NCBI GenBank assembly: GCA_017472565.1
Contig: JAFUPY010000004.1
Coordinates: forward strand, 2,739 to 66,738
Length of the DNA: 64,000 nucleotides
Direction of reading: 5' to 3'
Source of the DNA: Eubacterium sp.
GTDB taxonomy: Bacteria > Bacillota > Clostridia > Lachnospirales > Lachnospiraceae
The notes beneath the pieces were generated by a model. It had not been told where the DNA came from, did not search any database, and worked only from the letters and a program-made list of their open reading frames with translations. This document shows, in pieces, positions 18,251 to 38,155 of this stretch (its first letter is position 1; each line of letters opens with the position of its first letter). The translations under genes and the position numbers were made by a program.

Positions 18251-18279
18251 TTGACAAACAGTATGCCGCTGTGTATAAT
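18251..18279 (+). promoter_or_regulatory. Consensus sigma-A promoter of rpmF
   Basis: TTGACA-17 bp-TATAAT. Confidence 0.88.
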
Positions 18280-18708: not shown

Positions 18709-18775
18709 GTACAGATACTGTGACTATCACAAATAGATAGGAATAATATGTTCAGTGAAAAAGGAGACAAACGAA

Positions 18776-19621
18776 ATGAAAAGAAAAACAATTATCACTG
18801 CAGCAGTAACTGGTGCATGGCCGAAAAAAGAGAACAATCCAAATGTACCGATGACGCCTTCTGAAATTGCAGATGATGTATATGCATGTTGGAAAGCTGG
18901 TGCCGCCATTGCGCATCTGCATATGCGTGATGAAAATGGCAACGGAACCATGAACACAGAAAAGTTCCGTGAGACAGTAAATCTGATTCGTACAAGATAT
19001 CCAGAGTGTGATATTATTCTGAATCTTACAACATCTGGAGATATTAATGCAGATGATGCTATTCGAATGGCACACATTAAAGAGTTAAAACCAGAAATGG
19101 CGTCTTATGACTGTGGTTCCATGAACTGGTTGCATAGCGGGGTGTTTTTAAATACACCACCATTTTTAGAAGAATGCGGATATCTGTTCCAGGAAACAAA
19201 TACCAAACCGGAAATCGAAGCCTTTGATCCAGGTATGATTGCAAATGCGGCCTACTATCTGAAAAAAGGCGTGTTAAAAGCACCACTTCATTTTCAGTTC
19301 TGTATGGGCTGCGCGAATGGTATTCCTGGTAACATGAAAAATCTTCTTTTTATGAAAGAGACTATGGATGCACTTTGTCCTGGCTCTACATGGTCCTGCT
19401 TTGGCGTTGGGCATAGCGCATTGGAAATGTTGTATGGTGCGGTTGCATTGGGCGGACATATTCGTGTAGGGATGGAAGATAATGTTATGTATGCAAAGGG
19501 GGTTCTTGCTGAAAGCAATGCGCAGTTTGTAGAAAGAGCAGCTCGTGTCATCAGAGAATATGGTAATGAAGTTGCTACACCAGCGGATGCTCGTGAAATA
19601 CTTGGATTAATAGAGAAATAA
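18776..19621 (+). CDS. Beta-keto acid cleavage enzyme (BKACE/DUF849, Kce family)
   Basis: IITAAVTGA, NPNVPMTPSEIA, AGAAIAHLHMR, PEIEAFD, GGHIRVGMEDN, ATPADAREILGL. Confidence 0.93.
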   Translation: MKRKTIITAAVTGAWPKKENNPNVPMTPSEIADDVYACWKAGAAIAHLHMRDENGNGTMNTEKFRETVNLIRTRYPECDIILNLTTSGDINADDAIRMAHIKELKPEMASYDCGSMNWLHSGVFLNTPPFLEECGYLFQETNTKPEIEAFDPGMIANAAYYLKKGVLKAPLHFQFCMGCANGIPGNMKNLLFMKETMDALCPGSTWSCFGVGHSALEMLYGAVALGGHIRVGMEDNVMYAKGVLAESNAQFVERAARVIREYGNEVATPADAREILGLIEK

Positions 19622-19906: not shown

Positions 19907-20725
19907 ATGGGAAAACAGATTTTAGTAGACTTATCACATCCATTTGGCAGAGGCAATCCATTATGGCCATCTAACGGAGACTTCCACATCGACAGAGTAC
20001 AGCATATGCCAATGCATTACAGATTATTACAGACATTTAATGACTTCCATATGCACAACAGTACGCATGCAGATTCCCCATCTCACGTTATTCCTGAAGG
20101 TGCGTTCACACATGAACTTCCACTGGAAAATTACTATGGGGAAGCAATCTGTCTTGATATCCCAAAAGGGAAATGGGAACTGATCACACCAGAAGAAATC
20201 GAAGAGGCTGCAGCAAAAATCGAAGGTGGATTAAAAGAAGGTGATTGGGTATGTATTTGTACAGGTATGCATAAACGTTGGGGCGAAAATGATGATTATT
20301 TCGCATACAGCCCAGGGCTTTCCATCGATGCTGCAAAATTCTTAGTAGAAAAGAAAGTAAAAGGTGTTGCCTTAGATATGCAGGCACTGGATCACATTCT
20401 TTATACATATGCTGCGCAGCACGGCCCTGGTCCATATGTGCCAAGAATTGTAGAAGAATACAGAAAACAGTTTGGACATGATCCATTAGAAGATTTCCCA
20501 GAATGGGAACCATGTCATGATATCCTTCTTAGAAACAACGTAATGGGTATCGAAAACCTTGGTGGTGACATTGAAAAAGTAAAAGGACAGAGATTCATGT
20601 TCTGTGCATTCCCGCTGAGATGGTACATGGGTGATGGCACAATCGTTCGTGCGGTTGCATTTATTGATGAAGATAAGATCAATAAAGACGTGCCAGATCG
20701 TGTTTACAAATACGGCGTATATTAA
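19907..20725 (+). CDS. Cyclase family metal-dependent hydrolase (kynurenine formamidase-like)
   Basis: DLSHP, HNSTHADSPSH metal motif, PGLS, IENL, PLR...GDGTIVRAVA. Confidence 0.88.
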   Translation: MGKQILVDLSHPFGRGNPLWPSNGDFHIDRVQHMPMHYRLLQTFNDFHMHNSTHADSPSHVIPEGAFTHELPLENYYGEAICLDIPKGKWELITPEEIEEAAAKIEGGLKEGDWVCICTGMHKRWGENDDYFAYSPGLSIDAAKFLVEKKVKGVALDMQALDHILYTYAAQHGPGPYVPRIVEEYRKQFGHDPLEDFPEWEPCHDILLRNNVMGIENLGGDIEKVKGQRFMFCAFPLRWYMGDGTIVRAVAFIDEDKINKDVPDRVYKYGVY

Positions 20726-20810
20726 GAACTACAGATAACTGCAGATAGTAATCACTTGCTGTCTGCAGTTGTACTTTATCACATATATGGCAAGAAATGA
20801 GGAAGCAAAA

Positions 20811-21755
20811 ATGGCTGATAAAAAAAGAGTAGCAGTGTTAGGTGCCGGCAAGATGGGTTTAGGTATCGCTTTGCTGTTCGCTATGAAAGGGCACGAAGTA
20901 AAAGTTATTTATGTATATGATGACAAGATCCGTTGCGATGCACGTGCTGTCATCAAAGCGAACTTACGTGTGTTGGTAGATAATGACGTTGTTACTGCAG
21001 AGGATGCGGATGCAGCAATAGATAGAGTTGGGTTTGTGGATGCAATCGAAGAAGTCGCAGATTTTGCAGATATTGTGTTTGAAGGAATCATTGAAGATCT
21101 TGCTATTAAACAGGACTATTTCGCAAAGATGGATGCAATCTTTCCAGTCACAACTATTTTAGCGACCAATACATCCGCTATCAGTATAACGGAAATCGCA
21201 GAAAAAAGTGTTCACAAAGAACGCATTATAGGAACTCATTACTGGGATCCTGCATACTTGATTCCACTGGTAGAAGTAATCAAAACAAAATATGTTTCAG
21301 AAGAAACCGTAAAAACAACTTATGATCTTTTGAAAGAAGCTGGTAAAAGACCAGTTATTGTAAAAAAAGATGTGCCAGGATTTTTGGCAAATCGTATGCA
21401 GCATGCATTGTTCAGAGAAGCATTATCTATCGTAGAGAACGATATTGCAGATCCTAAGGATGTGGATGATGCGATTAAATACGGATTTGGCATGCGACTT
21501 GGTGTTCGCGCACCAATCGAAGTTATGGATATGGGTGGCGTGGATCTTACTTATTGGATTCATGAATATCTATTCCCACACATCGAAAGCTCTACCACAC
21601 CATCCAGATTGTTGACAGAAAACATGGAAAAAGGCAATCTTGGAGCCAAAACCGGACAGGGCATTATGACCTGGTCAGAAGAAGATGTAAAAGAATCAAA
21701 TGAGAGATTGATTGAAGGTCTTATCAAGGTTGCAAAAGCACTGGATCGTATTTAG
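20811..21755 (+). CDS. 3-hydroxyacyl(-CoA) dehydrogenase family protein
   Basis: GAGKMGLGIA Rossmann motif, EDLAIK, TNTS, GTHYWDP...LVEV, GFLANR, LGAKTGQG. Confidence 0.9.
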   Translation: MADKKRVAVLGAGKMGLGIALLFAMKGHEVKVIYVYDDKIRCDARAVIKANLRVLVDNDVVTAEDADAAIDRVGFVDAIEEVADFADIVFEGIIEDLAIKQDYFAKMDAIFPVTTILATNTSAISITEIAEKSVHKERIIGTHYWDPAYLIPLVEVIKTKYVSEETVKTTYDLLKEAGKRPVIVKKDVPGFLANRMQHALFREALSIVENDIADPKDVDDAIKYGFGMRLGVRAPIEVMDMGGVDLTYWIHEYLFPHIESSTTPSRLLTENMEKGNLGAKTGQGIMTWSEEDVKESNERLIEGLIKVAKALDRI

Positions 21756-21781: not shown

Positions 21782-22960
21782 ATGAGAAATGTAGTAATCG
21801 TAGCTGGTTGCCGTACACCAATAGGAACCATCGGTGGTCAGTTCAAATCCCTTACGTCCCTGGATTTATCAATTCCTGTAATGCAGAATCTGATTCAGCG
21901 TTCAGGCATTGATCCAGCTATGATCGAAGATGTTATCTGGGGCTGTAATTATCAAAGAACTTACAAAGAAAATAATCTTGCGCGTGTTGCTGCTGTGAAA
22001 GCAGGTCTTCCAGTAACAGTTCCAGGAATTACCATTCATAGAAACTGTACATCGTCTATGTCTGCGGTACAGATGGGATTTTATCAGATTAAATCCGGTG
22101 AAGCAGACTGTATTATGGCAGGTGGTGCAGATAGTATGAGTACTGCTCCACATATGGTATTTAATGCAAGATATGGTCAGAAATATGGACATATGGAAAT
22201 GCGAGACTCTATGTGGGATTCCTTGACGAATCTTGGTGTAGGGCCAGCAATGGGGATTACAGCTGAAAACGTGGCTGAAAAATATGATGTAACTCGTGAA
22301 CAGATGGATGCATATTCCCTTCGTTCACAGAAACGTGCAGTAGAAGCAATGGACGCAGGAAGATTTGAAGAAGAAATCATTCCAGTAGTCGTATCTTCCA
22401 GAAAAGGAGACATTGCCTATACGGTAGATGAATATCCAAAGAGGGATGCGACAATCGAAGGATTACAAAAGTTAAAACCTGCATTTAAAGAGGGCGGAAA
22501 AGTAACTGCAGGAAATGCCTCAGGTATGAATGACGCGTCTTCAGGTGTAATTTTGATGGAAGAAGAAAAAGCAAAAGAACTGGGTGTACCTATCTTGGCA
22601 AGAGTCGTAAGTGTTGCAACAACTGGTGTAGAGCCTGAATTAATGGGAATCGGCCCTATCAGCGCAACACAAAAGGCATTGGAAAAAGCAGGGCTGACCA
22701 TTGAGGATATAGACCTTTTTGAAATCAATGAAGCGTTTGCTTCTCAGTGTCTGGCTTGTCAGAAGGCGTTGGGAATTCCAGATGAAAAATTAAATGTAAA
22801 CGGTGGCGGAATTTCTCTTGGACATCCAGTAGGAGCGACTGGCTCTCGTATCATCATTTCCCTAATGTATGAAATGAGAAGACGAGGTAATCGCTATGGT
22901 GTTGCAACACTTTGTGCAGGCGGTGGCATGGGTACAGCTGTGATTATCGAAGCATGCTAA
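21782..22960 (+). CDS. Thiolase (acetyl-CoA C-acyltransferase)
   Basis: RTPIG, catalytic RNCTSS, TAGNASGMND, EINEAF, GHPVGATG, LCAGGGMG. Confidence 0.95.
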   Translation: MRNVVIVAGCRTPIGTIGGQFKSLTSLDLSIPVMQNLIQRSGIDPAMIEDVIWGCNYQRTYKENNLARVAAVKAGLPVTVPGITIHRNCTSSMSAVQMGFYQIKSGEADCIMAGGADSMSTAPHMVFNARYGQKYGHMEMRDSMWDSLTNLGVGPAMGITAENVAEKYDVTREQMDAYSLRSQKRAVEAMDAGRFEEEIIPVVVSSRKGDIAYTVDEYPKRDATIEGLQKLKPAFKEGGKVTAGNASGMNDASSGVILMEEEKAKELGVPILARVVSVATTGVEPELMGIGPISATQKALEKAGLTIEDIDLFEINEAFASQCLACQKALGIPDEKLNVNGGGISLGHPVGATGSRIIISLMYEMRRRGNRYGVATLCAGGGMGTAVIIEAC

Positions 22961-22976: not shown

Positions 22977-24143
22977 ATGAAAGATTTTGTATTTTCTTTC
23001 CCAACTAAAATTATCTTTGGAAAATGTGCGGAAGATAATATAGGACAGATGACTGCATTGTACGGAAAACATGCGTTGATATTGTATGGCAGCAGTCGTA
23101 TTGAAAAAAATGGATTACTGAACAAGATAACAAAGTTATTGGAAGATAATAATGTGTCTTATGAAACATATGGCGGTATTTGTGAGAATCCGTTGCTATC
23201 AGATGCACGGGCTGCTTGTGACATTGTAAAAGAAAAAAACATCGACTGTTTGATTGCTGTTGGCGGCGGAAGTGTAATAGATACCGCAAAGACGGTCGCT
23301 ATAGGGAGCTGTACAGAAACGCCTATTTGGGATTTCTTTGAAGGAAAGATGGTTCCAGAACGAGCGTTACCAATCGGTGTTGTGTTAACAATGGCAGCCA
23401 CAGCCAGCGAGGCAAACGGTGTAGCTGTGCTTACCAATGAGAAAGAAAAGAAAAAAACCATGCTGTTTTCACCGCATTTTTACCCAAAGTTTGCTTTGTT
23501 GAATCCGGAATTGACTTATACTGTACCAGCGAAACAGACCGCTATTGGAGCAGTTGATATCTTTGCTCATGCGTTTGAACGCTATTTTGATCTGGAGCAA
23601 AAAAATACACTGCGCAATCATCTTTGTGTATCGGTCATGAAAACGGTTCTGGAAGAACTTCCAAAAGTGCAGAATCAATTAGATGATTATGCAAGTCGCA
23701 GTCAATTGATGTGGTCTGCCACCATGGCACATAGTGACATGATTGGTGCAGGCGGAGTGTTTGTCTGTCATGAAATCTCGCATATCCTGACAGAGGAATA
23801 CGGGATTCCACATGGGCTTGCATTGGGAATTTTAATGCCGGCATGGTGCAAATATATGTTGCTGACAAATGCAGGTGATATCGCTAGGTTTGCAGAGGAT
23901 GTATTTGATGTGATGAAAGATGTAAAAACAGACCAGGCGATAGCACAAGAGGGGATTTCAAAAATGCAGCAATCTATATGTGACGCTGGTCTGCCGGTTA
24001 CGCTCAGAGAAGCAGGCATTATGTTTGTGAATAGTAAGATCCTTGCCCGTAAGGTACTGTCAGGGGATACGACCATTGGGAATTGCTTCCGAGCATTATC
24101 GCTTCATGATATAGAAGCCATCATTGAGCTTGCAAAAGGGTAG
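22977..24143 (+). CDS. Iron-containing alcohol dehydrogenase
   Basis: PTKIIFG, AVGGGSVIDTAK, DIFAHAFERY, HEISH...PHG metal ligands. Confidence 0.9.
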   Translation: MKDFVFSFPTKIIFGKCAEDNIGQMTALYGKHALILYGSSRIEKNGLLNKITKLLEDNNVSYETYGGICENPLLSDARAACDIVKEKNIDCLIAVGGGSVIDTAKTVAIGSCTETPIWDFFEGKMVPERALPIGVVLTMAATASEANGVAVLTNEKEKKKTMLFSPHFYPKFALLNPELTYTVPAKQTAIGAVDIFAHAFERYFDLEQKNTLRNHLCVSVMKTVLEELPKVQNQLDDYASRSQLMWSATMAHSDMIGAGGVFVCHEISHILTEEYGIPHGLALGILMPAWCKYMLLTNAGDIARFAEDVFDVMKDVKTDQAIAQEGISKMQQSICDAGLPVTLREAGIMFVNSKILARKVLSGDTTIGNCFRALSLHDIEAIIELAKG

Positions 24144-24246: not shown

Positions 24247-24261
24247 TGGCATGGCGATTGC
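24247..24261 (+). promoter_or_regulatory. Sigma-54 promoter (DUF362 operon)
   Basis: TGGCATG-GCGA-TTGC. Confidence 0.85.
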
Positions 24262-24313: not shown

Positions 24314-25603
24314 ATGTCTAAAAAATCAGTAGTAGCACTTGCGAAGGGACTGGACGTACAGGAAAATGTCACTCGCGTGTTTGATTTAATGGGTGGTGTT
24401 ACAAATGTTATTCGTAAAGGTTCCATCGTTGTATTAAAACCAAATGCAGGTCATGCGGAACCACCAGAAACTTCTGTTTGCACAAATCCAGAAGTAGTTC
24501 GTGCGGTTATCCGTGAAGTAAAAAAAGCAGAACCGAAAAAGATTATTATTGCAGAAGCAGCAGCGATTGGATGCGACACAGAAGAATGCTTCAGAGTAAG
24601 CGGAATTGAAGCAGTAGCGTTGGAGGAAGGCGTTGAATTACGCGACATCAAACGTGATAAGGAATTAGTAAACGTTGCTGTACGTGATTTTAAATCTAAC
24701 ATTGATCATGTGTTGCTGCCAAGATTCTTGATGGAGGCAGATCACTTAATCAATCTCCCAATTTTGAAAGCACATGCAAGTATGGTATTTTCAGGAGCAC
24801 TGAAAAATATCAAAGGTGTAGTTCAGGATAAAGTACATATGCAGATGCATCAGCACAATTTGACAATGGCGATGATGGATGTATGGAGTGCATGCCGCGC
24901 AGATATCAATATTATGGATGCAATGCGTGCGGCAAGTGGATATAGCCCACATATGCCAGTGCCAATTGAAACAAATATGATTCTTGGATCAAAAGATCCC
25001 GTTGCAATCGACCGCGTAGCTTGTGAAGTAACAGGTATTGACACAAGCTGTGTAGATTATTTTAAAGTGGCTGAAGAAACAGGACTTGGCAAATATGCAA
25101 TGGAAGATATTGAAGTTGTTGGTGATTCTATTGAAGACTGTTACAAGAAGATGTGGATTCCATACATTGGCGATATGAGCACTCGCTGGCCGGAATATGA
25201 TGTGAAATGTGAAGGCGCATGCTCCAGCTGCCAGGCACTTCTTGCAATCAACATGGAAGAATTAAAAGCGGTGGATGAGTATGATAAAAATGCAGGAATG
25301 ACAATTGTTATTGGACCAAAAAATGAGATTCCAAAAGACATTCCAGATGAAAAAATCGTACTTCATGGTAACTGTACAAGAAAATATCTCAAAGATCATC
25401 CAAACGCATTTTGGATTTTAGGATGTCCTCCAAACGAGCCAGCTCTTTATCTGACTGTTCAGAGAAAAGAAATCATTAATGGTATGGGCGATCAGGAAGA
25501 AGAAATCATCCGTCCTTGTATGGCAAGAGATGCAGCCGTGTGGCGTGACTATGTATTCAAAGCAGCAGATAAGTATTATGAGGAACATCCGGAGGATAGA
25601 TAA
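24314..25603 (+). CDS. DUF362 domain iron-sulfur protein
   Basis: VVLKPN, TNPEVV, ADHLINLPILKAH...SGALKN.KG, DPVAID; C-terminal CSSC...GNC...GCPP cluster ligands. Confidence 0.88.
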   Translation: MSKKSVVALAKGLDVQENVTRVFDLMGGVTNVIRKGSIVVLKPNAGHAEPPETSVCTNPEVVRAVIREVKKAEPKKIIIAEAAAIGCDTEECFRVSGIEAVALEEGVELRDIKRDKELVNVAVRDFKSNIDHVLLPRFLMEADHLINLPILKAHASMVFSGALKNIKGVVQDKVHMQMHQHNLTMAMMDVWSACRADINIMDAMRAASGYSPHMPVPIETNMILGSKDPVAIDRVACEVTGIDTSCVDYFKVAEETGLGKYAMEDIEVVGDSIEDCYKKMWIPYIGDMSTRWPEYDVKCEGACSSCQALLAINMEELKAVDEYDKNAGMTIVIGPKNEIPKDIPDEKIVLHGNCTRKYLKDHPNAFWILGCPPNEPALYLTVQRKEIINGMGDQEEEIIRPCMARDAAVWRDYVFKAADKYYEEHPEDR

Positions 25604-25884
25604 TGGATGGATACGTATATGTTGAAATGGATGAAAAATGCAAAAGTCTATTAAATACAATTTTTACAGACGAGTTCATGCAGGAAAACACAAATTTTAC
25701 AAACTTTGAAGGATTCCAGTATTCCAGTGCAGTTATTACCAATTGGAGGGCTGAACATATGGTGTATGCCCAGCTTTTGATGGATAATTTTGTAAAGGAA
25801 AGCACACGCTTTTCTTCATGGGAAGAAATGGTAATGATTGCTACAGATGAAAAGTTTGGCAAGTTTATGGCAAATCCTGTATAA
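25603..25884 (+). CDS. Small hypothetical protein, 93 aa
   Basis: TAATG overlap with the DUF362 stop and a GGAGG RBS; internal duplication FMQENTNF / FVKESTRF. Confidence 0.8.
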   Translation: MDGYVYVEMDEKCKSLLNTIFTDEFMQENTNFTNFEGFQYSSAVITNWRAEHMVYAQLLMDNFVKESTRFSSWEEMVMIATDEKFGKFMANPV

Positions 25885-25905
25885 TCGTTGAAAAGGAGAA
25901 TGAAA

Positions 25906-27204
25906 ATGGGAAATAATACACAGAAAATTGAAAGTGAAAATATGAAAATGAATTTCTCCAAAGGCTGGGGAATCATCATTTACTGTGCAGCAATGTTTTT
26001 CTTCCTGATTGGTTTTTCCATCGATGGATTAAATATTATTGCACCAGCATTTGCTGAAAAAACAGGTATCGAATATGCAACTGTTCTTAGTATGTCAACA
26101 GTTGCAGGATTAGTGGGTATCATTGCATATATTATTATTTCTAGGGTTGTTATCAAAGCGGGAGCACGTATGGTTTCTGGTATTTGCTTAATTGCAGCTA
26201 GTTTATCTTATGTTGCATTGGGACATTCTAATACATTAGTTGCTTATGCGATTTGTTTAACATTAGTAACATGTTTCATCAATGGCGCCGCATACATTGC
26301 AGGTGGTGCACTTGTAGCACAGTGGTTCCCTAAGAAAAAAGGTCTCGCAAATGGTTTTACAACTATGGGACATAACAGTGGATCCGCATTCTATGTACCA
26401 TTGATTGGTTTCTTATTAGGCGCATTAGGATTTGCAAATGGTATGACAGTAACTGCTATTGCAGGCGCAATCCTTGGTGTGATAGGTTTGATTTTTGTTC
26501 GTAACACTCCACAGGAAATGGGTATGCTGCCAGATAACGTTACACAGGAAGTATATGACAGAGAGTACTTTGAAGGTGACTCTGATGAAAAGGGTGGATG
26601 GACAGTTGGTAAGCTGTTGAAAACAAAAGAAATGTGGCTTTGCGCATTAGTAGTAGGTATTAACCAGTTAGTTACAACAGGTGTTATGTCTCAGCTTGTA
26701 GTTCGTAACACACAGATTGGTTTTGAACAGTCCAAAGCAGTTGCTTTAATGACAGTTGCGGCTTTGATCGGTCTTGTTGGTTCTTATATCTTTGGTGCAC
26801 TGGATCAGAAACTCGGCGTAAAGAAGGCAATTTTAATCTTCTTGGCATGGTATGCAGTAGCATTGTTAGTTAACTGTTCCAACACAATGATTGGTGTTTA
26901 TATCTCCGTATTTATGATTGGTATCTCTGTAGGTGCGGCTGCTAACTTTATCGTATCATTACCGGCATCTGTTTTCGGGCGACATGGATTTGCCACTGTT
27001 AACTCTGTCTTCTTCCCATTAATGCAGGTTGTATTAATGATGAATTATCTTGTAAATGCAGCAGCATTAAAACTTACAGGCAGCTTAAGAGGTGCATATT
27101 TCGTATTTGTTGGCTTGCTGATTGTGAATATGATTCTGATTGCTGTAATAAACACACGTAAATACAACAAAGATTACCAGAAAGAAGATAGCTTAAGAGC
27201 TTAA
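25906..27204 (+). CDS. MFS transporter
   Basis: About 12 hydrophobic segments, WFPKKKGLANG, GALDQKLGVK motif A-like loop, VFGRHGF. Confidence 0.9.
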   Translation: MGNNTQKIESENMKMNFSKGWGIIIYCAAMFFFLIGFSIDGLNIIAPAFAEKTGIEYATVLSMSTVAGLVGIIAYIIISRVVIKAGARMVSGICLIAASLSYVALGHSNTLVAYAICLTLVTCFINGAAYIAGGALVAQWFPKKKGLANGFTTMGHNSGSAFYVPLIGFLLGALGFANGMTVTAIAGAILGVIGLIFVRNTPQEMGMLPDNVTQEVYDREYFEGDSDEKGGWTVGKLLKTKEMWLCALVVGINQLVTTGVMSQLVVRNTQIGFEQSKAVALMTVAALIGLVGSYIFGALDQKLGVKKAILIFLAWYAVALLVNCSNTMIGVYISVFMIGISVGAAANFIVSLPASVFGRHGFATVNSVFFPLMQVVLMMNYLVNAAALKLTGSLRGAYFVFVGLLIVNMILIAVINTRKYNKDYQKEDSLRA

Positions 27205-27317: not shown

Positions 27318-28835
27318 TTAGATATCTTTTTTCCCAGAATAATCAATCTGATACTGTTTGATTTTTCTGGAAATGGTAGATGCGTTTATGTTAAGTTTTT
27401 CTCCTGCTTCACGAAGATTGCTGGATTCTCGTAAAACACTTTCTAATAGCTGCTTTTCAAAGTGAGCCACTGCTGTATTGAAATCCATATTTGTTGGCAG
27501 AGCTTCGTGTTCAGAAGAGATGTCTAACAGACTTGTGATGACGCTGTCATCAATGCTTCCGATACCAGAACTGCATAAAATCAGATATTCCATGAAGTTT
27601 TCCAATTCACGGATGTTACCAGGCCACTGATAGTCTCTTAGATATTGAAGTTGCTGTTCTGACAGTTCAAAGGAACATTCATACTTTTTACAAAACCGGT
27701 TAATAAAGTGATTGCACAATGGTTCAATATCCACGACACGTTCTCTCAGTGGTGGAACGTAGATTGGAATTACATTCAAACGATAGTATAGATCCTGTCG
27801 GAAGGTTCCTTCTGCAATCTTTTCTTTTAAATTACTATTGGTCAGAGCCAGGAAACGAATATCCAGTTTGATTGGCTTGGTACCGCCGATGCGAGTGATT
27901 TCCTGCTGCTGGATGGCACGCAATAGCTTTACCTGAAGATCCATTGGCATATCGCCGATTTCATCTAACATTAAAGTTCCGTGATTAGCCAGTTCAAATA
28001 ATCCTGGTTTGCCCTTTGCGCTTGCACCGGAAAACGCTCCTTTTTCATATCCAAAGAGCTCGGATTCAAGCAGATGGGCAGGAATGGAAGCACAGTTAAT
28101 CTTTACAAAAGGTTCTTTGCTTCGCTTGCTGTTTTTGTAAATTTCGTCTGCAATGACTTCTTTACCAGCACCGGATTCACCAGTGATCAATACGGTTGCA
28201 TCAGATTTTGCTACATGATTAATCAACGTCCATATATTGGCCAAAGAAGTGTCCTTACCTATCATGTCAGAAGATAAATGATCTTCTGATTTTTTTTCGA
28301 TGGTTTTATTGTTAAGACCGTGGATTTCTTTTAAGAAATCATCAAAGTCCTGTTTTAACGATTTTAAAGTAACGATTGGACGGCTGCAGGCAACTACCTG
28401 ATATAATTCACCTTTGTCGTCAAAAATTGGTGTTCCGATGGAGTATCCTGTCAGTGGTTTGCCATCTGTATAGGTTGTTGACAGTCGAAAAGCAGGCTTT
28501 TTGTGCTTTAACACATCCATAATGGACCCGCCCGTATACACTTTATCCTTTCCAATCAAGTCAGCTACATTCTTATTTAAAACTCGTTCCGCAGAAACTC
28601 CAGTATTTTTGGAATATGCAGGATTCACGTAAAGAACATTTCCCTGATTGTCTGTGATAAATATACTATCGTCTATTTCGTCCACTACCTGTTTAAAGTC
28701 GATACCGTGTTTTAAAAAGAGCAAGAGATACTGATCAATCTCTTCCAATTCATTGTAAATAGGTGTGTTTTCTATTTTTTTCATTGTATTCAAGAGCATA
28801 TCTCGAATCTTACAAATGGCTAAATATTGATTCAT
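27318..28835 (-). CDS. Sigma-54-dependent transcriptional activator (PAS, AAA+, Fis-type HTH)
   Basis: PAS IFITDNQGNVLYVNPAY; GESGAGKE, ESELFGYEKGAFSGA, LDEIG, FRQDLYYRLNV, WPGNIREL. Confidence 0.96.
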   Translation of the reverse strand: MNQYLAICKIRDMLLNTMKKIENTPIYNELEEIDQYLLLFLKHGIDFKQVVDEIDDSIFITDNQGNVLYVNPAYSKNTGVSAERVLNKNVADLIGKDKVYTGGSIMDVLKHKKPAFRLSTTYTDGKPLTGYSIGTPIFDDKGELYQVVACSRPIVTLKSLKQDFDDFLKEIHGLNNKTIEKKSEDHLSSDMIGKDTSLANIWTLINHVAKSDATVLITGESGAGKEVIADEIYKNSKRSKEPFVKINCASIPAHLLESELFGYEKGAFSGASAKGKPGLFELANHGTLMLDEIGDMPMDLQVKLLRAIQQQEITRIGGTKPIKLDIRFLALTNSNLKEKIAEGTFRQDLYYRLNVIPIYVPPLRERVVDIEPLCNHFINRFCKKYECSFELSEQQLQYLRDYQWPGNIRELENFMEYLILCSSGIGSIDDSVITSLLDISSEHEALPTNMDFNTAVAHFEKQLLESVLRESSNLREAGEKLNINASTISRKIKQYQIDYSGKKDI

Positions 28836-29030: not shown

Positions 29031-29045
29031 TGGCATGAAAATTGC
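29031..29045 (+). promoter_or_regulatory. Sigma-54 promoter (lar operon)
   Basis: TGGCATG-AAAA-TTGC. Confidence 0.85.
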
Positions 29046-29104: not shown

Positions 29105-29857
29105 ATGGATGTAGCATATTTGGAAGAATTGTTAGGAAAAGTATCCCGACAGGAAACAAGTACTGTTGAGGCATTAGAAATATTGAAACATCTGCCATAT
29201 GAAGATATTGGCTGTGCCAATATTGATCAGCATAGAAATATTCGAACAGGTCAGGCAGAAGTGATTTTTGGACAGGGAAAAACACCAGAACAGATTGCTA
29301 AGATTATTTCCTGCATGAAAAAGGGGAATGAACGCATTTTGGTAACAAGAGCATCAAATGAGGCTTATGAAGCAGTTTTGGAAGTGGCGCCAGAGGCCGT
29401 ATATGATAAATTGGCAAGATTGATTATGGTTGGAGAAAAACCAGTACCAGTAGATACAAAAGGACCAATTGCAGTCCTGACGGCTGGTACCGCAGATATC
29501 CCTGTTGCGGAAGAAGCGGCTTTGTGTGCTGAGTACTTCGGCAATCGTGTTGATCGTATCTATGACGTAGGTGTGGCGGGAATTCATCGTTTGTTTGATC
29601 GTATTGACCGTATTCGCCAGGCAGAGGTCATCATTGTTATTGCCGGCATGGAAGGTGCGTTAGCCAGTGTGGTAGGTGGGCTTGTAAATGTACCAGTCAT
29701 CGCTGTACCTACCAGCGTAGGATATGGAGCCAGCTTTGGTGGTGTGGCAGCTTTATTGGCTATGTTGAACTGCTGTGCAAATGGAGTCGGAGTTGTAAAT
29801 ATCGATAACGGATATGGAGCAGCTTGTCTGGCATCCAAGATTCACATTGGAAAATAA
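29105..29857 (+). CDS. larB: Nickel-pincer cofactor biosynthesis protein LarB
   Basis: DQHR...EVIFGQGKT, AGTADIPVAEEA, DVGVAGIHR, AGMEGAL, PTSVGYGA, MLNCCANG, VNIDNGYGA. Confidence 0.96.
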   Translation: MDVAYLEELLGKVSRQETSTVEALEILKHLPYEDIGCANIDQHRNIRTGQAEVIFGQGKTPEQIAKIISCMKKGNERILVTRASNEAYEAVLEVAPEAVYDKLARLIMVGEKPVPVDTKGPIAVLTAGTADIPVAEEAALCAEYFGNRVDRIYDVGVAGIHRLFDRIDRIRQAEVIIVIAGMEGALASVVGGLVNVPVIAVPTSVGYGASFGGVAALLAMLNCCANGVGVVNIDNGYGAACLASKIHIGK

Positions 29858-29899
29858 ATAGATTTATAGTAGGGAACGAAGCAGAAAGGAGTGGAAACT

Positions 29900-30262
29900 A
29901 TGTGTGAAAAATTCTATGACCATGAGCATTCCCATGTACACACTCATAATATATGTGAACATCAGCATACGCATGAGCATCATTCTCATGAACATGGACA
30001 TTCTCACCCAAATGCCAAAGCGGTATCCAATCGCCTGGCAAAAGCAATCGGCCACCTGGAAGCAGTAAAACGAATGGTAGATAGAGGAGAAGACTGTGCC
30101 CAGGTATTGACTCAGCTTGCAGCGGTAAAATCTGCAATTAACAATGCGGGAAAGGTGGTTTTAATGGATCATCTCAATCATTGTATCGTTGAGGCTGTGG
30201 AAGAGAATGATTTTCAAAAGATTGAACAGTTTGGTTCAGCAATTAAGCAGTTTGTTAAATAA
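29900..30262 (+). CDS. CsoR/RcnR-family metal sensor with His-rich N-terminus (InrS-like)
   Basis: NRLAKAIGHL...DCAQVLTQLAAV...DHLNHC; N-terminal His tract ending HGHSHP. Confidence 0.9.
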   Translation: MCEKFYDHEHSHVHTHNICEHQHTHEHHSHEHGHSHPNAKAVSNRLAKAIGHLEAVKRMVDRGEDCAQVLTQLAAVKSAINNAGKVVLMDHLNHCIVEAVEENDFQKIEQFGSAIKQFVK

Positions 30263-30280: not shown

Positions 30281-31123
30281 ATGAAAGAAAAAATTTTATA
30301 TTTAGAATGCAAAACCGGTGCAGCCGGAGATATGTTAATGGCAGCACTTTATGATGTAATGAATGAGGAACAAAAAGCAGTTTTTCTGGAGACAATGAAT
30401 GGCTTAGTTGAATCCGTAACGGTTGCTGCGGAGAAAAAAGTGTCTCGTGGAATTGCAGGCGTACATATGAAGGTTACTGTGCAGGGTGAAGAGGAAGGAG
30501 AACACCTTGACGGTCATGACCATGAGCATCACCATCATCATGAACATGGCCACGAACATCACCATCGCCATGAGCATAATCATTGCCATGAGCATACTCA
30601 CTTCCATCATGTGCATGTGAGCTATAAAGACCTTTTAGCACATATTATGGAACTTCCTGTCAGCAACCAGGTAAAACAGAATGCATCAACAGTATATCAG
30701 CTTCTTGGAATGGCAGAAAGTAAAGTTCATGGAACGGATATTGAGCAAATCCATTTTCATGAAGTGGGAAGTCTGGATGCTCTAGTAGACATCGTAGGAT
30801 GTGCCCTGGCAATGGAAATGATTGCACCGGATAAGATTTATGCAGCACCAGTCTGTGTCGGCAATGGAACGGTCAGATGTGCCCATGGTGTGCTTCCAGT
30901 TCCAGCACCTGCTACCGCAGAACTGATCAAAGGAATGCCGACCTATAGCAGTAAGTTTGATGGAGAATTATTGACTCCTACTGGTGCAGCTGTGTTAAAG
31001 CACTATGTGCAAAATTACACAAAAGAAATTAGCATGGAAATCAAAGACATTGGCTATGGGATGGGAACCAAAGAATTTGAACAGCCAAGCTTTGTAAGAG
31101 CTTTTGTGGGCTGGACTTCCTAA
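30281..31123 (+). CDS. larC: LarC N-terminal part (LarC1) with His-rich Ni-binding tract
   Basis: GAAGDM, poly-His, AESKVHG...HFHEVG..D..VDI, CAHGVLPVPAPAT, ELLTPTGAA, GYGMG. Confidence 0.95.
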   Translation: MKEKILYLECKTGAAGDMLMAALYDVMNEEQKAVFLETMNGLVESVTVAAEKKVSRGIAGVHMKVTVQGEEEGEHLDGHDHEHHHHHEHGHEHHHRHEHNHCHEHTHFHHVHVSYKDLLAHIMELPVSNQVKQNASTVYQLLGMAESKVHGTDIEQIHFHEVGSLDALVDIVGCALAMEMIAPDKIYAAPVCVGNGTVRCAHGVLPVPAPATAELIKGMPTYSSKFDGELLTPTGAAVLKHYVQNYTKEISMEIKDIGYGMGTKEFEQPSFVRAFVGWTS

Positions 31124-31136
31124 AGGAGGGTGCCCG

Positions 31137-31958
31137 ATGACAGATGCTAAATTAGAATTTAAATTAAGAAAATTAAAATCCTACATAAAAGAACTGGGAA
31201 GCGTAGCGGTTGCATTTTCAGCTGGTGTGGATTCCACCTTTTTGCTGAAGGTGGCTCATGAAGTGTTAGGCGACAAGGTTGTTGCTGTGACCGCCAATAC
31301 AAGTTCCTTTACAGAACAGGAATTGCAGGAGGCCACCCTTTTTTGTCAAAAATATGGAATTGTCCATGTGATCTGTGAAATTGATAACCTGAGTTTGCCG
31401 GAGTTTGCAAACAATGCTGTGGATCGTTGTTACCATTGTAAGAAAATGATTTTCAATGAGGTAAAAACATACGCAATCACACATGGTTTTAATGCTGTTG
31501 TTGAGGGTGCAAATAAGGATGATGAAGCTGATTTTAGACCAGGTCATCGTGCAATAGAAGAACTAAAGATTGAGAGTCCACTGCGAATGGCTAGTTTAAC
31601 AAAAGAAGAAATACGGACACTGGCCCGAACTATGGGGCTTGAAGTGTGGAAGAAACCTTCCTGCGCCTGCTTGGCATCCAGATTTGTGTATGGAGAATCG
31701 ATTACAAGAAAAAAGTTAAAAATGGTTGAATGTGCAGAACAGTATCTATCGGAGATTGGATGCACACAATATCGAGTGAGAATGCATGGAATGATGGCTC
31801 GTATTGAAATCATGCCAGAAGATTTTTCACTGTTATTGCAGGAAGATACTCGAATACAGCTAATTGCAGATATGCACAAATTGGGCTTCCAATACGTATC
31901 CTTAGATTTGATGGGGTTTCGTACAGGAAGTATGAATGAAGCGTTACTCATAAAGTAA
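31137..31958 (+). CDS. larE: ATP-dependent sulfur transferase LarE
   Basis: PP-loop AFSAGVDST, RCYHCKK, DFRPG, KPSCACLASR, RVRMH, GFRTGSMN. Confidence 0.96.
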   Translation: MTDAKLEFKLRKLKSYIKELGSVAVAFSAGVDSTFLLKVAHEVLGDKVVAVTANTSSFTEQELQEATLFCQKYGIVHVICEIDNLSLPEFANNAVDRCYHCKKMIFNEVKTYAITHGFNAVVEGANKDDEADFRPGHRAIEELKIESPLRMASLTKEEIRTLARTMGLEVWKKPSCACLASRFVYGESITRKKLKMVECAEQYLSEIGCTQYRVRMHGMMARIEIMPEDFSLLLQEDTRIQLIADMHKLGFQYVSLDLMGFRTGSMNEALLIK

Positions 31959-31997
31959 AAGAAGCTCTTTAGGATTGGCTTGGAGAAAAGTGAAACT

Positions 31998-32444
31998 ATG
32001 AAGGATATCATTATAAAGCTAGAAAGCAATATAGACGACAGTACAGGAGAAATGCTGGGTTATGTGATGGACTTGCTCTTGAAGGCAGGGGCATGCGATG
32101 TTTACTATACACCGATCTATATGAAAAAGAATCGACCAGCCTGGCAGTTGAATGTGCTTTGCAAAGAGGAAAATATTGCAGCGTTAGAAGAGATCATTAT
32201 TTTGAATACCACTACTATTGGAATTCGCCGATGTGTCATGCAGCGTACTATATGTGACAGAGAGATACAGGATGTTACTACTCCATACGGAATGGCAAAA
32301 GTAAAGGTATGTTTGTTTCATGAGCATCTGCGCATATATCCAGAATATGAAAGTGTGATTGCTATTTGTCAAAAAGAAAACTTATCATATTCGGAAGTGT
32401 ATCAAATGATTGTTAATACATATAAAAAAATACTACAACCATAA
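31998..32444 (+). CDS. larC: LarC C-terminal part (LarC2)
   Basis: LESNIDD, GACDVYYTPIYMKKNRP, TTTIGIR, PEYES. Confidence 0.93.
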   Translation: MKDIIIKLESNIDDSTGEMLGYVMDLLLKAGACDVYYTPIYMKKNRPAWQLNVLCKEENIAALEEIIILNTTTIGIRRCVMQRTICDREIQDVTTPYGMAKVKVCLFHEHLRIYPEYESVIAICQKENLSYSEVYQMIVNTYKKILQP

Positions 32445-32525: not shown

Positions 32526-33908
32526 CTACAACGCGGATAAGCTTTTTCGACCGCTCTTATCAGGGATTCCCAGTTCCAATCTGTATTTGGTAACTGTTCT
32601 TCGGGAAATGTGAATGCCCAGTATTTCTAATTGTTCGGAAATTTTATTATCGCTGTAAGGTTTGTTTTTATTTTCTTGTGAAACAATACTTTTTATAGCT
32701 TCTTTGGCTTTGTCTGGTGTTTGGGACTCGCCGGTGGCTGTAAATTGTTTGTTTAATGAAGCGGTTAAAAAGAAATTCAGTGGAAACAACCCCCATGTGC
32801 ACTGTAAATATTTACCCTTCATTGCCCTGCTGATGGTAGATTCATGCAGATCCAACCTGTCTGCCAGGTCTACCAGACGCAGTGGTTTTTTTGATAATGG
32901 CCCATAAAGAAAGAAATCGTGTTGTTCTTCCACAATTGCGTGAGCCACGCGTGACAGGGTAGAAATACGCTGTGTAATGCAGTTCTGTACCCATTCTGCT
33001 TGAGATACTTTCTTTTTCAGGTAATCATAGACTTCTTTGTCTGGAGCATCTTCCATTAAGCTTTTATAATACGCATTGATGTTAAAGGTAGGATACGAGG
33101 ATTCATTAACGAGAATTTCGAATTTTTCTTCCAGTTTTACGACAACAATATCAGGCACAATATAGCGCATCTGTTCCCGGTTGCTAAAGGAACTGCCTGG
33201 TTTTGGATTCATCTGTTTGATTTCATTGCATGCTTCGGTAACTTCATCTAAGGAAACTCCCAGCTTTCTGGCAATAATAGATAAGTGGTTCTTTCCGACG
33301 TCACTTAAATAATGCTTGATAATCTCTTCGGTGACAGGAGAGTAGGCTGGCTTTCTATAAAGCTGTAGCAACAGACATTCAGAAAGATTGCGTGCTCCAA
33401 CGCCAATTGGTTCCAGAGACTGAATTGTTTGCAATATACGCTCTGCGTGTTCATAGGAAATATGTAACTGGCTGGCAATATCAGACAGATCTTCTGTTAA
33501 ATATCCTTTGGAATCTAAAAGAAGGATCATATATTTTAACGCTTTTTGGTCGAAGTCAGAAAACTCTGTAGTAAGTAGCTGAGAAAATAAATATTCGCTG
33601 AGAATTTCTTCCGTTTCATAGGTCCGATGCCATTGTTCTTGAGAATAGTCCGCTTCGCGTTCCTGCTTGTAATAGACTCTATTCTGATAATCGCTGGATT
33701 CCAGCCACTGTAGTTTGCGCTGTATTTCGTCATTGATTGGTTCAGAGGTGGTACCTTTGTCAAAATCAATATCAATAACAGGATTATCTAAGGCAAGATT
33801 TTCAATATAAGATTCTAACTCTATAGAATTCATTTGCAAAATATCTGTGGATTGTAGCATTCGTTGTGACAGCGTTTGCTTTTGAACTAATTCCATTGAA
33901 AGATTCAT
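32526..33908 (-). CDS. rpoN: RNA polymerase sigma-54 factor
   Basis: Q/L-rich region I, EPIGVGARNLSECLLLQL, LHESTISRA HTH, RpoN box SRRTVTKYR. Confidence 0.96.
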   Translation of the reverse strand: MNLSMELVQKQTLSQRMLQSTDILQMNSIELESYIENLALDNPVIDIDFDKGTTSEPINDEIQRKLQWLESSDYQNRVYYKQEREADYSQEQWHRTYETEEILSEYLFSQLLTTEFSDFDQKALKYMILLLDSKGYLTEDLSDIASQLHISYEHAERILQTIQSLEPIGVGARNLSECLLLQLYRKPAYSPVTEEIIKHYLSDVGKNHLSIIARKLGVSLDEVTEACNEIKQMNPKPGSSFSNREQMRYIVPDIVVVKLEEKFEILVNESSYPTFNINAYYKSLMEDAPDKEVYDYLKKKVSQAEWVQNCITQRISTLSRVAHAIVEEQHDFFLYGPLSKKPLRLVDLADRLDLHESTISRAMKGKYLQCTWGLFPLNFFLTASLNKQFTATGESQTPDKAKEAIKSIVSQENKNKPYSDNKISEQLEILGIHISRRTVTKYRLELGIPDKSGRKSLSAL

Positions 33909-34084: not shown

Positions 34085-35536
34085 TTATTCATGGATCTTG
34101 GCAATTGTTTTTGCCAATTCTTTTTTCATTTCAAGATTGCCCTGTCTGGAAATCATGATTCTCTGTGCCTGTGGAGAACCTGCTCCGTGCATAGATTCTG
34201 TACGATATCCAACAGCAGCTGTTCCAAGTGTGAGATTTTCAATTAATCTCATGATCTTTAATCTGTTTTCAGTACTTATGTTTGCAACACCTTTGAAATA
34301 TTTATCAATCACTGGTCCGATTACTGGATCTTTAAAATCTTTCTCAGATGGAGCTGTTACCATAAGCCCGCCAGCAAGATCTTCTGCTAAACGTGCAATT
34401 TCGTATGGATAGCGTGTTACGTTTTGTTTACATACGTTAGCGAGTAGCAGGTTAATCAGATAGTTACCGGATGCTGTTTTGCTTCCTTCTGCAGAACATG
34501 CAATACCACAGCAGAATAAAGTTTCGTTCAAGTGTGTCATTTCAATTAATTTATCTTTTACATGAGATGCTTTCTGAGCACCATTGTAATCAGCAGCAAC
34601 GGCAGCAGCGCCAATCAATACATCACCAACACCAACTTTACATCCGCCGTAAGACTGACGATGATAGCCTGCAAATCTTTCGACAAGCATTCCGGAGAAA
34701 TCATATTCGCCGTCCATGAAGATTCTGTCATTTGGAACGAATACGTCATCAAATACAACCAGTGCTTCCATGCCACCAAATTCAGAATTTCCCACATCTA
34801 AGTCACCGCCCTCCAATTTTCTTGTGTCGCAGGACTGACGGCCGATAATCATGAAAATGCCCTCTGCGTCAACTGGAACAGCGAAGGAAACAGCATAGTC
34901 TTTATCTGCTTCGCCCATTGCGATGGTTGGCATAACAATAACTTCGTGAGAGTTAACGATACCGGTTTGGTGTGCTTTTGCGCCTCTTACCACAATACCA
35001 TCCTCTCTACGTTCTACAACGTGAAGGAACAGATCAGGATCTTCCTGTGCGTGAGGCGCTTTGGAACGATCTCCCTTTGGGTCTGTCATTGCACCATCGA
35101 TAGTAAGATCGTTATTCTGACAATAGGTTAAAAATGTTTTAAAGTTATCGTGGTAGTGTGTGCCATGAGCCTGATCGCATTCATATGTAGTGCTGTATAC
35201 TGCGTTGAAAGCGTCCATACCTACACAGCGTTGGAAGCATGCAGCGGTTTTCTGACCACAAAGACGCTGCATCTTTACTTTTTTCATAAGGTCATCTGTG
35301 CTCTGATGAATGTGAGTAAAACGGTTAATTTTTTCTCCTGTAATGTGAGAAGTTGTAACCATCAGATCTTCATGTTCAGGCATCTGTGCAAGATCATAAG
35401 TCATTTTAACGGAGTTCAATGATGGACGAAGAATTGGGTGATCTACTGGATTCTCAATTTTTTCTCCAAACATGTATACCTGCATATTCATTTTTCGAAT
35501 ACTTTCAACGTATTCTTCACCTGTCATAAGTGCCAT
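34085..35536 (-). CDS. abfD: 4-hydroxybutyryl-CoA dehydratase / vinylacetyl-CoA isomerase
   Basis: CFQRCVGMDA, GAMTDPKGDR, GAKAHQTG, YHRQSYGGCKVG ([4Fe-4S] ligands), ESMHGAGSPQAQ; closely resembles clostridial AbfD. Confidence 0.95.
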   Translation of the reverse strand: MALMTGEEYVESIRKMNMQVYMFGEKIENPVDHPILRPSLNSVKMTYDLAQMPEHEDLMVTTSHITGEKINRFTHIHQSTDDLMKKVKMQRLCGQKTAACFQRCVGMDAFNAVYSTTYECDQAHGTHYHDNFKTFLTYCQNNDLTIDGAMTDPKGDRSKAPHAQEDPDLFLHVVERREDGIVVRGAKAHQTGIVNSHEVIVMPTIAMGEADKDYAVSFAVPVDAEGIFMIIGRQSCDTRKLEGGDLDVGNSEFGGMEALVVFDDVFVPNDRIFMDGEYDFSGMLVERFAGYHRQSYGGCKVGVGDVLIGAAAVAADYNGAQKASHVKDKLIEMTHLNETLFCCGIACSAEGSKTASGNYLINLLLANVCKQNVTRYPYEIARLAEDLAGGLMVTAPSEKDFKDPVIGPVIDKYFKGVANISTENRLKIMRLIENLTLGTAAVGYRTESMHGAGSPQAQRIMISRQGNLEMKKELAKTIAKIHE

Positions 35537-35637: not shown

Positions 35638-35652
35638 GCAAAAACCGTGCCA
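35638..35652 (-). promoter_or_regulatory. Sigma-54 promoter (abfD)
   Basis: Minus strand TGGCACG-GTTT-TTGC, perfect consensus. Confidence 0.9.
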
Positions 35653-35885: not shown

Positions 35886-36185
35886 ATGGAAGAAATAGCA
35901 TTGGTAAAACAGATAGAAATAGTTTTGGAAGAGAAAGTCAGACCAATCTTGTTGGAGCATGATGGAAATGTACAATTAATTTCGGTAGAAGATGGAATTT
36001 GCCGGGTGAAGTTAGAAGGGAAGTGTGCAGGGTGTCCATCAGCCAACTTGACAAAGGAAGAGATTATCGGAAAAGAAATCATGGAGACAATTCCTGCCAT
36101 AAAAGATGTTATATTAGTGCAGGAAGTAAGTACAGAATTGTTGGATTTCGCAAAGAAAATACTGAGGTATAAGGTAACGCAATGA
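35886..36185 (+). CDS. NifU/Nfu-type Fe-S carrier protein
   Basis: VRPILLEHDGNVQL...LEGKCAGCPSA. Confidence 0.92.
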   Translation: MEEIALVKQIEIVLEEKVRPILLEHDGNVQLISVEDGICRVKLEGKCAGCPSANLTKEEIIGKEIMETIPAIKDVILVQEVSTELLDFAKKILRYKVTQ

Positions 36186-36344: not shown

Positions 36345-37337
36345 TTATTTGGAAAATACTTCCGGATAGAAATCTGCCGCCATAGATTCTACTGCATATG
36401 CCATTCGATTTCCAGGAAGGACACTTTCCAATGTAATTACTGCAAACCGTTCATTCTTTACGCAGTCAAGTTGTGAAAGGGTTGGGTTGGACTTGATTTC
36501 TTCAATCTTTTTTTCAATAGAAGGAGAGTCGTAATCGTGAATTAAGATTACATCAGGGTTGCGTGTAAGGACTTCCTCGTAGCTTACGGTTATCCATTGC
36601 TTGTCTGTTAAATCTGCAAACAGGTTTTCTCCACCGGCAAGTTCGATTAATTGCGACTCGAAGTTAATACCAGAGCATGTGAAAACACCATTCGTTCCGC
36701 TGTCATAGACTAACACTTTTACAGGTTCTTCATCTTTGATAATATCCTGAACGGCAGCAATGCGAGATTGCTGATCTGTAACAAAGGCCTTTGCTTTGTC
36801 TTCTGCATCAAAGATTTTTCCAATATCAAGAATCTCCTGATACTGTTGTTCTATAGTTGTAGCAGAGTTGACATATACATTCATGCCATAGGTGCCAACT
36901 TCTTCGATGTTGCATCCAGCATCGCCGATTTCCCAATCCAGGGTGTAGATAAAATCTGCGTCGCTGGTCAGAATTGATTCTCGTGTGGCAGATGCGTGGT
37001 TCAATTCAGGGATGGCATTCACGGCATCTGCGTATTCGTCCAATGGACCACGGCTATGATTTACCAGAGAGCGGCCGATGACATAGTCTTCCAGACCGAG
37101 AGCAACGAACAATTCTGTACAGTTTGGACCTAATGTCAGGACTTTTGTAGGCTTTTGGGTGATGGTGACCTCTCTGCCGTAATTATTTACGGTTACAGGA
37201 TAGCGCTCAGTGTTTTCGGAAGTTACTTCTGAACTTGCCTGAATTGTATCCTGCTGAACACTATCTTGAGGAGCACATGCTGTTATTGTAGACAGGGCGA
37301 GGGTGGCGATAAGCAGGGGAATAAGTTTTCTTTTCAT
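36345..37337 (-). CDS. ABC transporter substrate-binding lipoprotein (iron-chelate/cobalamin type)
   Basis: AAGGAG RBS, lipobox ITA-C, YPVTVNNYG...PTKV, ELAGGEN, SYEEVLTRNPDVI. Confidence 0.9.
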   Translation of the reverse strand: MKRKLIPLLIATLALSTITACAPQDSVQQDTIQASSEVTSENTERYPVTVNNYGREVTITQKPTKVLTLGPNCTELFVALGLEDYVIGRSLVNHSRGPLDEYADAVNAIPELNHASATRESILTSDADFIYTLDWEIGDAGCNIEEVGTYGMNVYVNSATTIEQQYQEILDIGKIFDAEDKAKAFVTDQQSRIAAVQDIIKDEEPVKVLVYDSGTNGVFTCSGINFESQLIELAGGENLFADLTDKQWITVSYEEVLTRNPDVILIHDYDSPSIEKKIEEIKSNPTLSQLDCVKNERFAVITLESVLPGNRMAYAVESMAADFYPEVFSK

Positions 37338-38139: not shown

Positions 38140-38155
38140 AGTTACAATCCCCTTT

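Follow-up and report, generated by a model that had tools for sequence, protein, structure and literature searches.

A DUF362 protein encoded beside larB, larC and larE genes in a phloroglucinol-type gene cluster of Eubacterium sp. is a candidate NPN- and Fe-S-dependent phenol-ring reductase

The NPN cofactor is known from racemases, from an ornithine cyclodeaminase (cited in PMC13524815) and from a sugar hydride transferase, NphT (PMC13524815). Characterised enzymes with the LarA fold are racemases or epimerases (PMC11770544, PMC12393405), and in LarA racemisation His108 and His174 are the alternating acid and base (PMC12393405). NPN synthesis is encoded in hundreds of genomes that have no LarA (PMC13524815). 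The DUF362 family (PF04015) has been used as an outgroup to LarA because both belong to Pfam clan CL0471, and the kinship of LarA and DUF362 is itself already published (PMC11770544). Fe-S motifs nested within DUF362 have been described (PMC7955657) and are the norm in this family. The phloroglucinol route of Clostridium scatologenes consists of an SDR reductase, a cyclase, a dehydrogenase and a lyase (PGR-DPGC-TfD-TAL; PMC10470551). A literature search that left subscription papers mostly out of reach found no paper that puts an NPN role of DUF362, or the cluster described below, to the test, and no case of NPN coupled to an electron chain was found in the literature examined. DUF362 is not mentioned in the searched text and supplement portion of PMC13524815, whose large tables may list it among lar neighbours, nor in the supplement text of PMC10470551.

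The stretch of DNA analysed here (the window) comprises 64,000 nt of Eubacterium sp. (GCA_017472565.1, contig JAFUPY010000004.1, positions 2,739–66,738 of the forward strand) and belongs to a genome that is 68.6% complete. It contains a gene (24314..25603, +) for a DUF362 protein of 429 aa and 47.8 kDa, a candidate NPN/Fe-S oxidoreductase composed of a LarA-type N-terminal domain and a four-Cys C-terminal domain. Pfam DUF362 (PF04015) matches residues 39-238 with an E-value of 1.9e-48 (165.6 bits, gathering cut-off 24), and a weak Lar_N match to residues 60-182 (E 0.005, 16.4 bits) stays under its cut-off of 23.3. The residues singled out in an initial annotation of this DNA (E141, H154, K164, H179, C303, C306, G352-N-C354 and C371-P-P) are all in place.

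The AlphaFold2 model of the protein (pLDDT 86) was compared with LarA structures. In a Foldseek search with the full model, all 14 listed matches with E < 1e-4 are LarA or LarA homologues. VIA comparisons gave Z scores of 14.9-18.4 for 12 LarA-family entries (rmsd 2.7-3.4 Å over ~210 residues), the next fold reaching 5.9; for 5huq, 6d6z and 7s91 the values were Z 16.8-18.4 and rmsd 2.7-2.8 Å over 208-213 residues, the superposition on the LarA cofactor-binding domain covering residues 11-280 (24344..25153, +). The alignments to LarA entries span about 210-220 residues, mostly within residues 11-310, and the model of the C-terminal domain alone returned no LarA entry. A LarA-type N-terminal fold is thus supported by the model. 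The likeness to the LarA superfamily (PF09861/DUF2088; 5HUQ, 6D6Z, 9EIA, 9Q3K) consists of this fold, the key residues and lar genes nearby; the protein differs in its low identity (9-15%), in having no His108 and in the apparent replacement of the LarA C-terminal domain by the four-Cys domain.

In a profile-profile comparison, 101 DUF362 rows matched 16 LarA rows with a probability of 63.9 and an E-value of 6.6e-5. A shallow 48-row profile gave no significant match to the LarA rows (probability 0.6, E 0.089), and PDB sequence searches with the protein, the shallow profile or the deep profile found no LarA match. The deep profile alignment pairs H154/K164/H179 (24773..24850, +) with H176/K186/H202 of a reference LarA homologue of 427 aa (L083, which matches PDB 5huq at E 9e-149), equal to LarA 174/184/200, with a one-residue gap ahead of the last His. 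It also pairs Asn44 with LarA Asp72 and His47 with LarA Arg75, and the position of LarA Ser180 is kept. The alignment that the initial annotation had given, with the last His one residue closer, was thereby recovered, and the profile alignment supports His154, Lys164 and His179 as the likely equivalents of LarA His174, Lys184 and His200. No His occurs at the position of LarA His108, where Cys87 or Ala84 aligns in the profile alignments. Single-His LarA homologues, in contrast, lack His174 and not His108 (PMC12393405).

The C-terminal domain (residues 293-386; 25190..25471, +) contains Cys303, Cys306, Cys354 and Cys371 in the order CxxC, GxC, GCP, a predicted single Fe-S site. Folded alone it reached a pLDDT of 94.5, and Foldseek found no match at E 0.001 (best E 0.54, TM 0.33-0.39). 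The two best matches are complex I PSST (E 0.54 and 0.61), and NuoB or hydrogenase small subunits make up 19 of the 48 listed matches, all below significance. Among the weak PDB matches of the deep profile, 21 of 31 come from the NuoB/hydrogenase-small-subunit family. A profile of residues 293-386 places all four Cys opposite those of three Ech-type small subunits (11-16 bits) and of a HydS (7 bits), each score exceeding those of 100 shuffles. Pfam PF01058 does not match the domain, and the ESM Atlas holds only unnamed clusters of it, including stand-alone proteins of ~155 aa. Compared with NuoB/PSST and the [NiFe]-hydrogenase small subunit (PF01058), the order and context of the four Cys are the same, whereas the domain is shorter (~90 residues), is fused to a LarA-type domain and has no hydrogenase large subunit in its cluster. 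Of the NuoB/hydrogenase-small-subunit pattern claimed initially, the co-linear and conserved Cys order holds, while the likeness in fold searches is not significant. The domain is a putative shortened relative of that family with one predicted Fe-S cluster, and we consider the presence of an Fe-S cluster in the protein very probable.

His154, Lys164, His179 and Cys303/306/354/371 do not vary among 48 close homologues, which share 65-91% identity. In 124 distant representatives (proteins of 350-500 aa from the best 150 search matches) H154 is kept in 106, K164 in 124 and H179 in 123, and the four Cys are kept in 121 (C303), 122 (C306), 123 (C354) and 121 (C371). This conservation is far above chance. 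Invariant His47 and Cys87 occur in the subfamily of this locus in addition to the generic DUF362 residues.

The initial annotation had read the His/Lys/His motif as the mark of an NPN enzyme. KPN and His-x9-Lys-x14-His are, however, common to this protein and to generic DUF362 proteins, which carry two CxxCxxCxxxC motifs (a ferredoxin domain) where this protein has the CxxC/GxC/GCPP domain. DUF362 occurs in 119 of 220 genomes of the class, 65 of the 119 lacking LarC. The 30 best generic loci gave 29 readable proteins; all 29, among them 11 from LarC-negative genomes, have His-x9-Lys and a later His, and all 29 carry two ferredoxin motifs. The two-domain architecture of the protein itself is found at 20-23% identity in 34 other genomes of the class, 17 without LarC and 16 of these without LarB too; the residues are intact in all 14 LarC-negative loci read, and the genomes that have this architecture but no larB and no larC include some with a completeness of 90% or more. 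The motif was therefore rejected as diagnostic for NPN: it is family-wide and found without the NPN pathway, so the argument of the initial annotation fails to stand alone. The fold, the residues and the Cys domain partly support that annotation's inference of an NPN and Fe-S enzyme, but the motif is no marker of NPN users in particular. Confinement of the site to NPN-making genomes does not hold for the wider family and nearly holds for this subfamily (47/50), which further differs from generic DUF362 in having a partner gene for a 93-aa protein and in being closely linked to lar genes and to genes for ring cleavage. In two generic DUF362 proteins (L135, L140) the last His lies 16 residues past the Lys, which is the LarA spacing. 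Other DUF362 proteins are encoded 2-8 kb from larC in three genomes of the class (G128 C34, G139 C1, G166 C1). Among control genomes, LarC and DUF362 occur without a Lar_N match in Synechococcus elongatus and Haloferax volcanii, and DUF362 occurs without LarC in Bacteroides thetaiotaomicron.

The persistence of the motif and the four-Cys architecture in these near-complete genomes without larB and larC fits an Fe-S redox enzyme of the pathway that works without NPN, its His/Lys/His site binding another nucleotide or metal cofactor used throughout DUF362 and the lar genes serving the iron-containing alcohol dehydrogenase (Fe-ADH), the dehydrogenase or LarA. Among lar neighbours, many carry an NAD(P)H-oxidoreductase annotation, and NPN binding is shown for one family of this kind (PMC13524815). 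The genome also has a LarA homologue of its own, L001 (424 aa; C101:17820-19091), which could use the lar genes; SDR and sugar-acid genes are its neighbours. Against this stands that the DUF362 protein is the only protein of the cluster with a LarA fold and the tethering Lys. The Fe-ADH, moreover, is present in only 46 of 80 related loci, in two groups.

The case for NPN rests on genomic context and not on the motif. The genes larB-larC-larE lie 3.5 kb downstream of the DUF362 gene: larB (29105..29857, +; NF033503 over cut-off), whose ATG at 29105 follows a ribosome-binding-site-like stretch, a His-rich CsoR/RcnR-family metal-sensing repressor (29891..30262, +), larC1 (30281..31123, +; TIGR00299 over cut-off), larE (31104..31958, +; TIGR00268 over cut-off) and larC2 (31980..32444, +; NF052512 over cut-off). 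Related loci were compared as the best 80 of 116 (mean length 16.9 kb). larB, larC or larE lies within 36 of the 80, and within 23 of the 44 loci of at least 19 kb; the lar genes stand upstream as well as downstream of DUF362 and in several clades of the tree. No lar gene was found in any Flavonifractor/Intestinimonas-type locus among the 80, nor in four loci (two < 2 kb) of metagenome relatives with 46-60% identity, which were found with one 43%-identical protein as query.

Co-occurrence was analysed in 50 genomes with long contigs, one locus per genome, chosen with the gene neighbourhoods already known and with a lar gene inside 27 of the 50 loci. LarC and LarE are each present in 47 of the 50 carriers, and for 21 of the 23 loci without an internal lar gene, LarC is encoded at another place in the same genome. 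The three carriers without LarC, two of which also lack LarB and LarE, are small, probably incomplete genomes. LarA over cut-off occurs in 21 of the 50; 27 have LarC without LarA, which argues against LarA as the user of the cofactor. The background for LarC is 66/220 in the class and 55/90, 35/61 and 22/61 in three host families (36-61%), the last two figures including one or two carriers. LarC is clearly over-represented in carriers, though by less than the class background alone would imply, and related genomes do not count as independent observations; counts are given here because Fisher tests overstate the co-occurrence of related genomes. Stand-alone short larC1 paralogues lie in the cluster of six loci (L025, L028, L029, L032, L060, L016); there are two copies in six genomes, in tandem in five, often with a full larC elsewhere, and they are possibly a dedicated nickel-insertion module. 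An ABC transporter of the iron-siderophore/cobalamin type (36345-39217, -; family read by eye) adjoins the cluster and could supply nickel or iron.

Promoter-like motifs also link the DUF362 gene with the lar genes. The window contains seven exact sigma-54-type -24/-12 motifs versus 1.1 expected, and none of 100 shuffles reached seven. Five of them precede the genes for the cyclase (19827), DUF362 (24247..24261, +), larB (29031..29045, +), the HpaB-family protein (35638-35652) and nifU (35807), and a motif with one mismatch precedes the beta-keto-acid cleavage gene (18694). A sigma-54-dependent activator (27318..28835, -) and the sigma-54 factor itself (rpoN; 32526..33908, -) are encoded in the window. 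Under a relaxed definition, the motif occurs in the 200 nt preceding DUF362 in 52 of 78 loci and in the 200 nt preceding larB in 8 of 15; the background is 0.019 per 200 nt. No sigma-54 motif was found in the 1.3 kb before the LarA homologue on C101, which again argues against that protein as the partner of the cluster's lar genes. A perfect sigma-70 consensus is present at 18251-18279 (+), between ackA and the first gene of the cluster.

The adjacent larBCE, the shared sigma-54-type motifs and the genome co-occurrence, none of which the initial annotation had used, rescue the NPN reading. On this evidence the DUF362 protein probably binds NPN, and an enzyme of the cluster that does without it seems unlikely. 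Also to be considered is a role outside catabolism, as a cofactor carrier or maturation factor for the NPN or Fe-S enzymes of the cluster: the gene travels with larC paralogues, the metal-sensing repressor and nifU. It has, however, its own sigma-54 motif, it stays with the genes for the ring hydrolase, the dehydrogenase and the lyase also in loci that have no lar gene nearby, and the subfamily was not shown in most larC-positive genomes of the class. We regard such a role as very improbable.

The genes around DUF362 resemble the phloroglucinol pathway. A beta-keto-acid cleavage enzyme (18755..19621, +), a Cyclase-family hydrolase with a predicted ring-opening function (19907..20725, +), a 3-hydroxyacyl-CoA-dehydrogenase-family enzyme (20769..21755, +), a thiolase (21782..22960, +; Pfam) and the Fe-ADH (22977..24143, +) precede it. 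It is followed by the gene for the 93-aa protein (25603..25884, +), whose start overlaps the DUF362 stop, and by an MFS transporter (25888..27204, +) whose annotated start probably lies a few codons later. The 93-aa protein has no Pfam or NCBIfam family and only unnamed clusters in the ESM Atlas; its predicted complex with DUF362 scored 0.00, control pairs likewise not folding. Further downstream are a protein matching Pfam HpaB only (34085..35536, -), which we take to be 4-hydroxybutyryl-CoA-dehydratase-like, and a NifU-like Fe-S carrier (35886..36185, +; Pfam). Among the 80 loci the 93-aa protein is a neighbour in 79, the thiolase in 65, the MFS transporter in 59, the dehydrogenase in 55, the cyclase in 45, the beta-keto-acid cleavage enzyme in 36 and the HpaB-family protein in 21.

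The cluster shares with the C. scatologenes pathway the cyclase, dehydrogenase-like and beta-keto-acid cleavage genes, the MFS transporter and a regulator (PMC10470551). It differs in that a PGR-type SDR is missing, the operon thus paralleling ring hydrolase, dehydrogenase and lyase without the NADPH reductase, and in that DUF362, lar genes and the HpaB-family gene are added. No SDR above 32% identity to a PGR-like protein occurs in the 80 loci, three of which have an SDR match at 26-32%. A separate PGR-containing cluster is present in the genome (C117, 60493-65421, -), with a GntR regulator, lyase, cyclase, dehydrogenase and SDR arranged as in the phloroglucinol pathway; its labels were inferred from gene order and families, without direct comparison to the C. 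scatologenes proteins. The window's beta-keto-acid cleavage enzyme is 89% identical to the TAL-like lyase of C117, suggesting recent duplication or exchange, the cyclase 37% identical to the DPGC-like protein and the dehydrogenase 42% to the TfD-like protein.

Eight related loci encode a beta-diketone hydrolase of the 6-oxocamphor-hydrolase type, unrelated to the cyclase, and one metagenome locus combines a 48%-identical DUF362 protein with beta-diketone hydrolase, dehydrogenase and lyase. That two unrelated enzymes hydrolysing 1,3-diketones are encoded next to DUF362 suggests that the DUF362 protein forms a cyclic 1,3-diketone. An acetoacetate-CoA ligase is added in one related locus. The window cyclase reads Trp-Pro-Ser at the site of Trp-Pro-Tyr in the C117 protein, as in 20 of 20 matched loci, and Trp20 and Tyr22 are named as substrate positions of the cyclase (PMC10470551); the ring is therefore probably not dihydrophloroglucinol. 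Given the separate PGR cluster and this difference at a substrate position, plain phloroglucinol was judged an improbable substrate; resorcinol, hydroxyhydroquinone, tetrahydroxybenzene and substituted phloroglucinols are candidate substrates. Named hosts of related loci include Eubacterium ramulus and Flavonifractor plautii, both phloroglucinol degraders (PMC10470551).

A phloroglucinol-type cluster that lacks the usual ring reductase and holds NPN genes may encode a new phenol-ring reductase using NPN and an Fe-S cluster. We propose, with a probability of roughly 0.42, that the DUF362 protein is an NPN/[4Fe-4S] oxidoreductase reducing a resorcinol- or phloroglucinol-type ring to a cyclic 1,3-diketone; given NPN and the cluster, ring reduction is its likely reaction. 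With a meta-dihydroxy phenol as substrate, this reaction would be the first step in a fermentation of the phloroglucinol type. NPN made by the neighbouring LarB, LarE and LarC would be tethered to Lys164, with His179 on nickel. Ferredoxin or flavodoxin would deliver two low-potential electrons singly via the Cys303/306/354/371 cluster, and the pincer would store them as a hydride. The ring, in its keto tautomer, would accept this hydride, and His154 would be the single acid, the second histidine that LarA requires for racemisation being absent. The cyclase, or in other loci the beta-diketone hydrolase, would open the diketone; after oxidation of the product by the dehydrogenase, the beta-keto-acid lyase and the thiolase would cleave it into acetoacetate and acyl-CoA.

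The resorcinol reductase of fermenting clostridia catalyses the type of reaction proposed here and is ferredoxin-dependent (PMC10470551, discussion), which fits an enzyme carrying its own cluster. No sequence for that protein was found in the literature search, and no ferredoxin gene recurs in the related loci. A purified clostridial resorcinol reductase is reportedly a flavoprotein, which would argue against the DUF362 protein being that enzyme. Hydride uptake from H2 by a Ni centre beside a hydrogenase-type cluster would be a very improbable variant of this reading.

If NPN is bound, it might instead serve another step. This could be redox-neutral, a ring-opened hydroxy-oxo acid being racemised, epimerised or isomerised, or it could be the oxidation of a non-aromatic cyclic alcohol to the 1,3-diketone, with electrons leaving via the cluster. 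The known reactions of LarA-fold enzymes are of the former kind, a cyclitol-like substrate would fit those loci that add a kinase, a class II aldolase and sugar-type dehydrogenases, and the direction of a reaction cannot be read from sequence. However, the protein has no counterpart of His108, the substrate-binding C-terminal domain of LarA appears to be replaced in it, its four Cys are near-invariant, ring reduction is the very step missing relative to the phloroglucinol pathway, and its hosts include the two phloroglucinol degraders named above. Such another step is therefore unlikely, and ring reduction is preferred.

The initial annotation had presented net redox chemistry as a new use of NPN. 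NphT already performs intermolecular hydride transfer (PMC13524815), which takes that novelty away. NphT is a precedent for NPN in a non-LarA enzyme and for net hydride transfer between molecules, and lar-neighbour logic led to its discovery too; it differs from the proposed reductase in its aldo-keto reductase fold (TIM barrel), its sugar disproportionation and in having no Fe-S centre (PMC13524815). We tentatively suggest that the DUF362 subfamily may be the first enzyme class to wire NPN to an Fe-S electron chain, a flavin-free one-electron-to-hydride converter dearomatising resorcinol-type phenols in gut anaerobes, and that DUF362 more widely may be a major missing NPN user in larBCE genomes without larA. 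Whether DUF362, which is large and uncharacterised, uses NPN could be tested concretely and cheaply in this subfamily. The subfamily may also provide the ring-reducing enzyme of a second pathway of polyphenol fermentation in Clostridia of the human gut, the rumen and other guts. For the sister groups without lar genes, the question arises of what occupies this site in genomes that cannot synthesise NPN.

A variant of the cluster is found in six related loci (L011, L014, L017, L020, L039, L074), which have a class II aldolase, a second Fe-ADH and a 2-hydroxyacid dehydrogenase; some of them add an FGGY kinase, a zinc dehydrogenase or a flavin oxidoreductase. This aldolase-bearing variant is a possible second downstream route.
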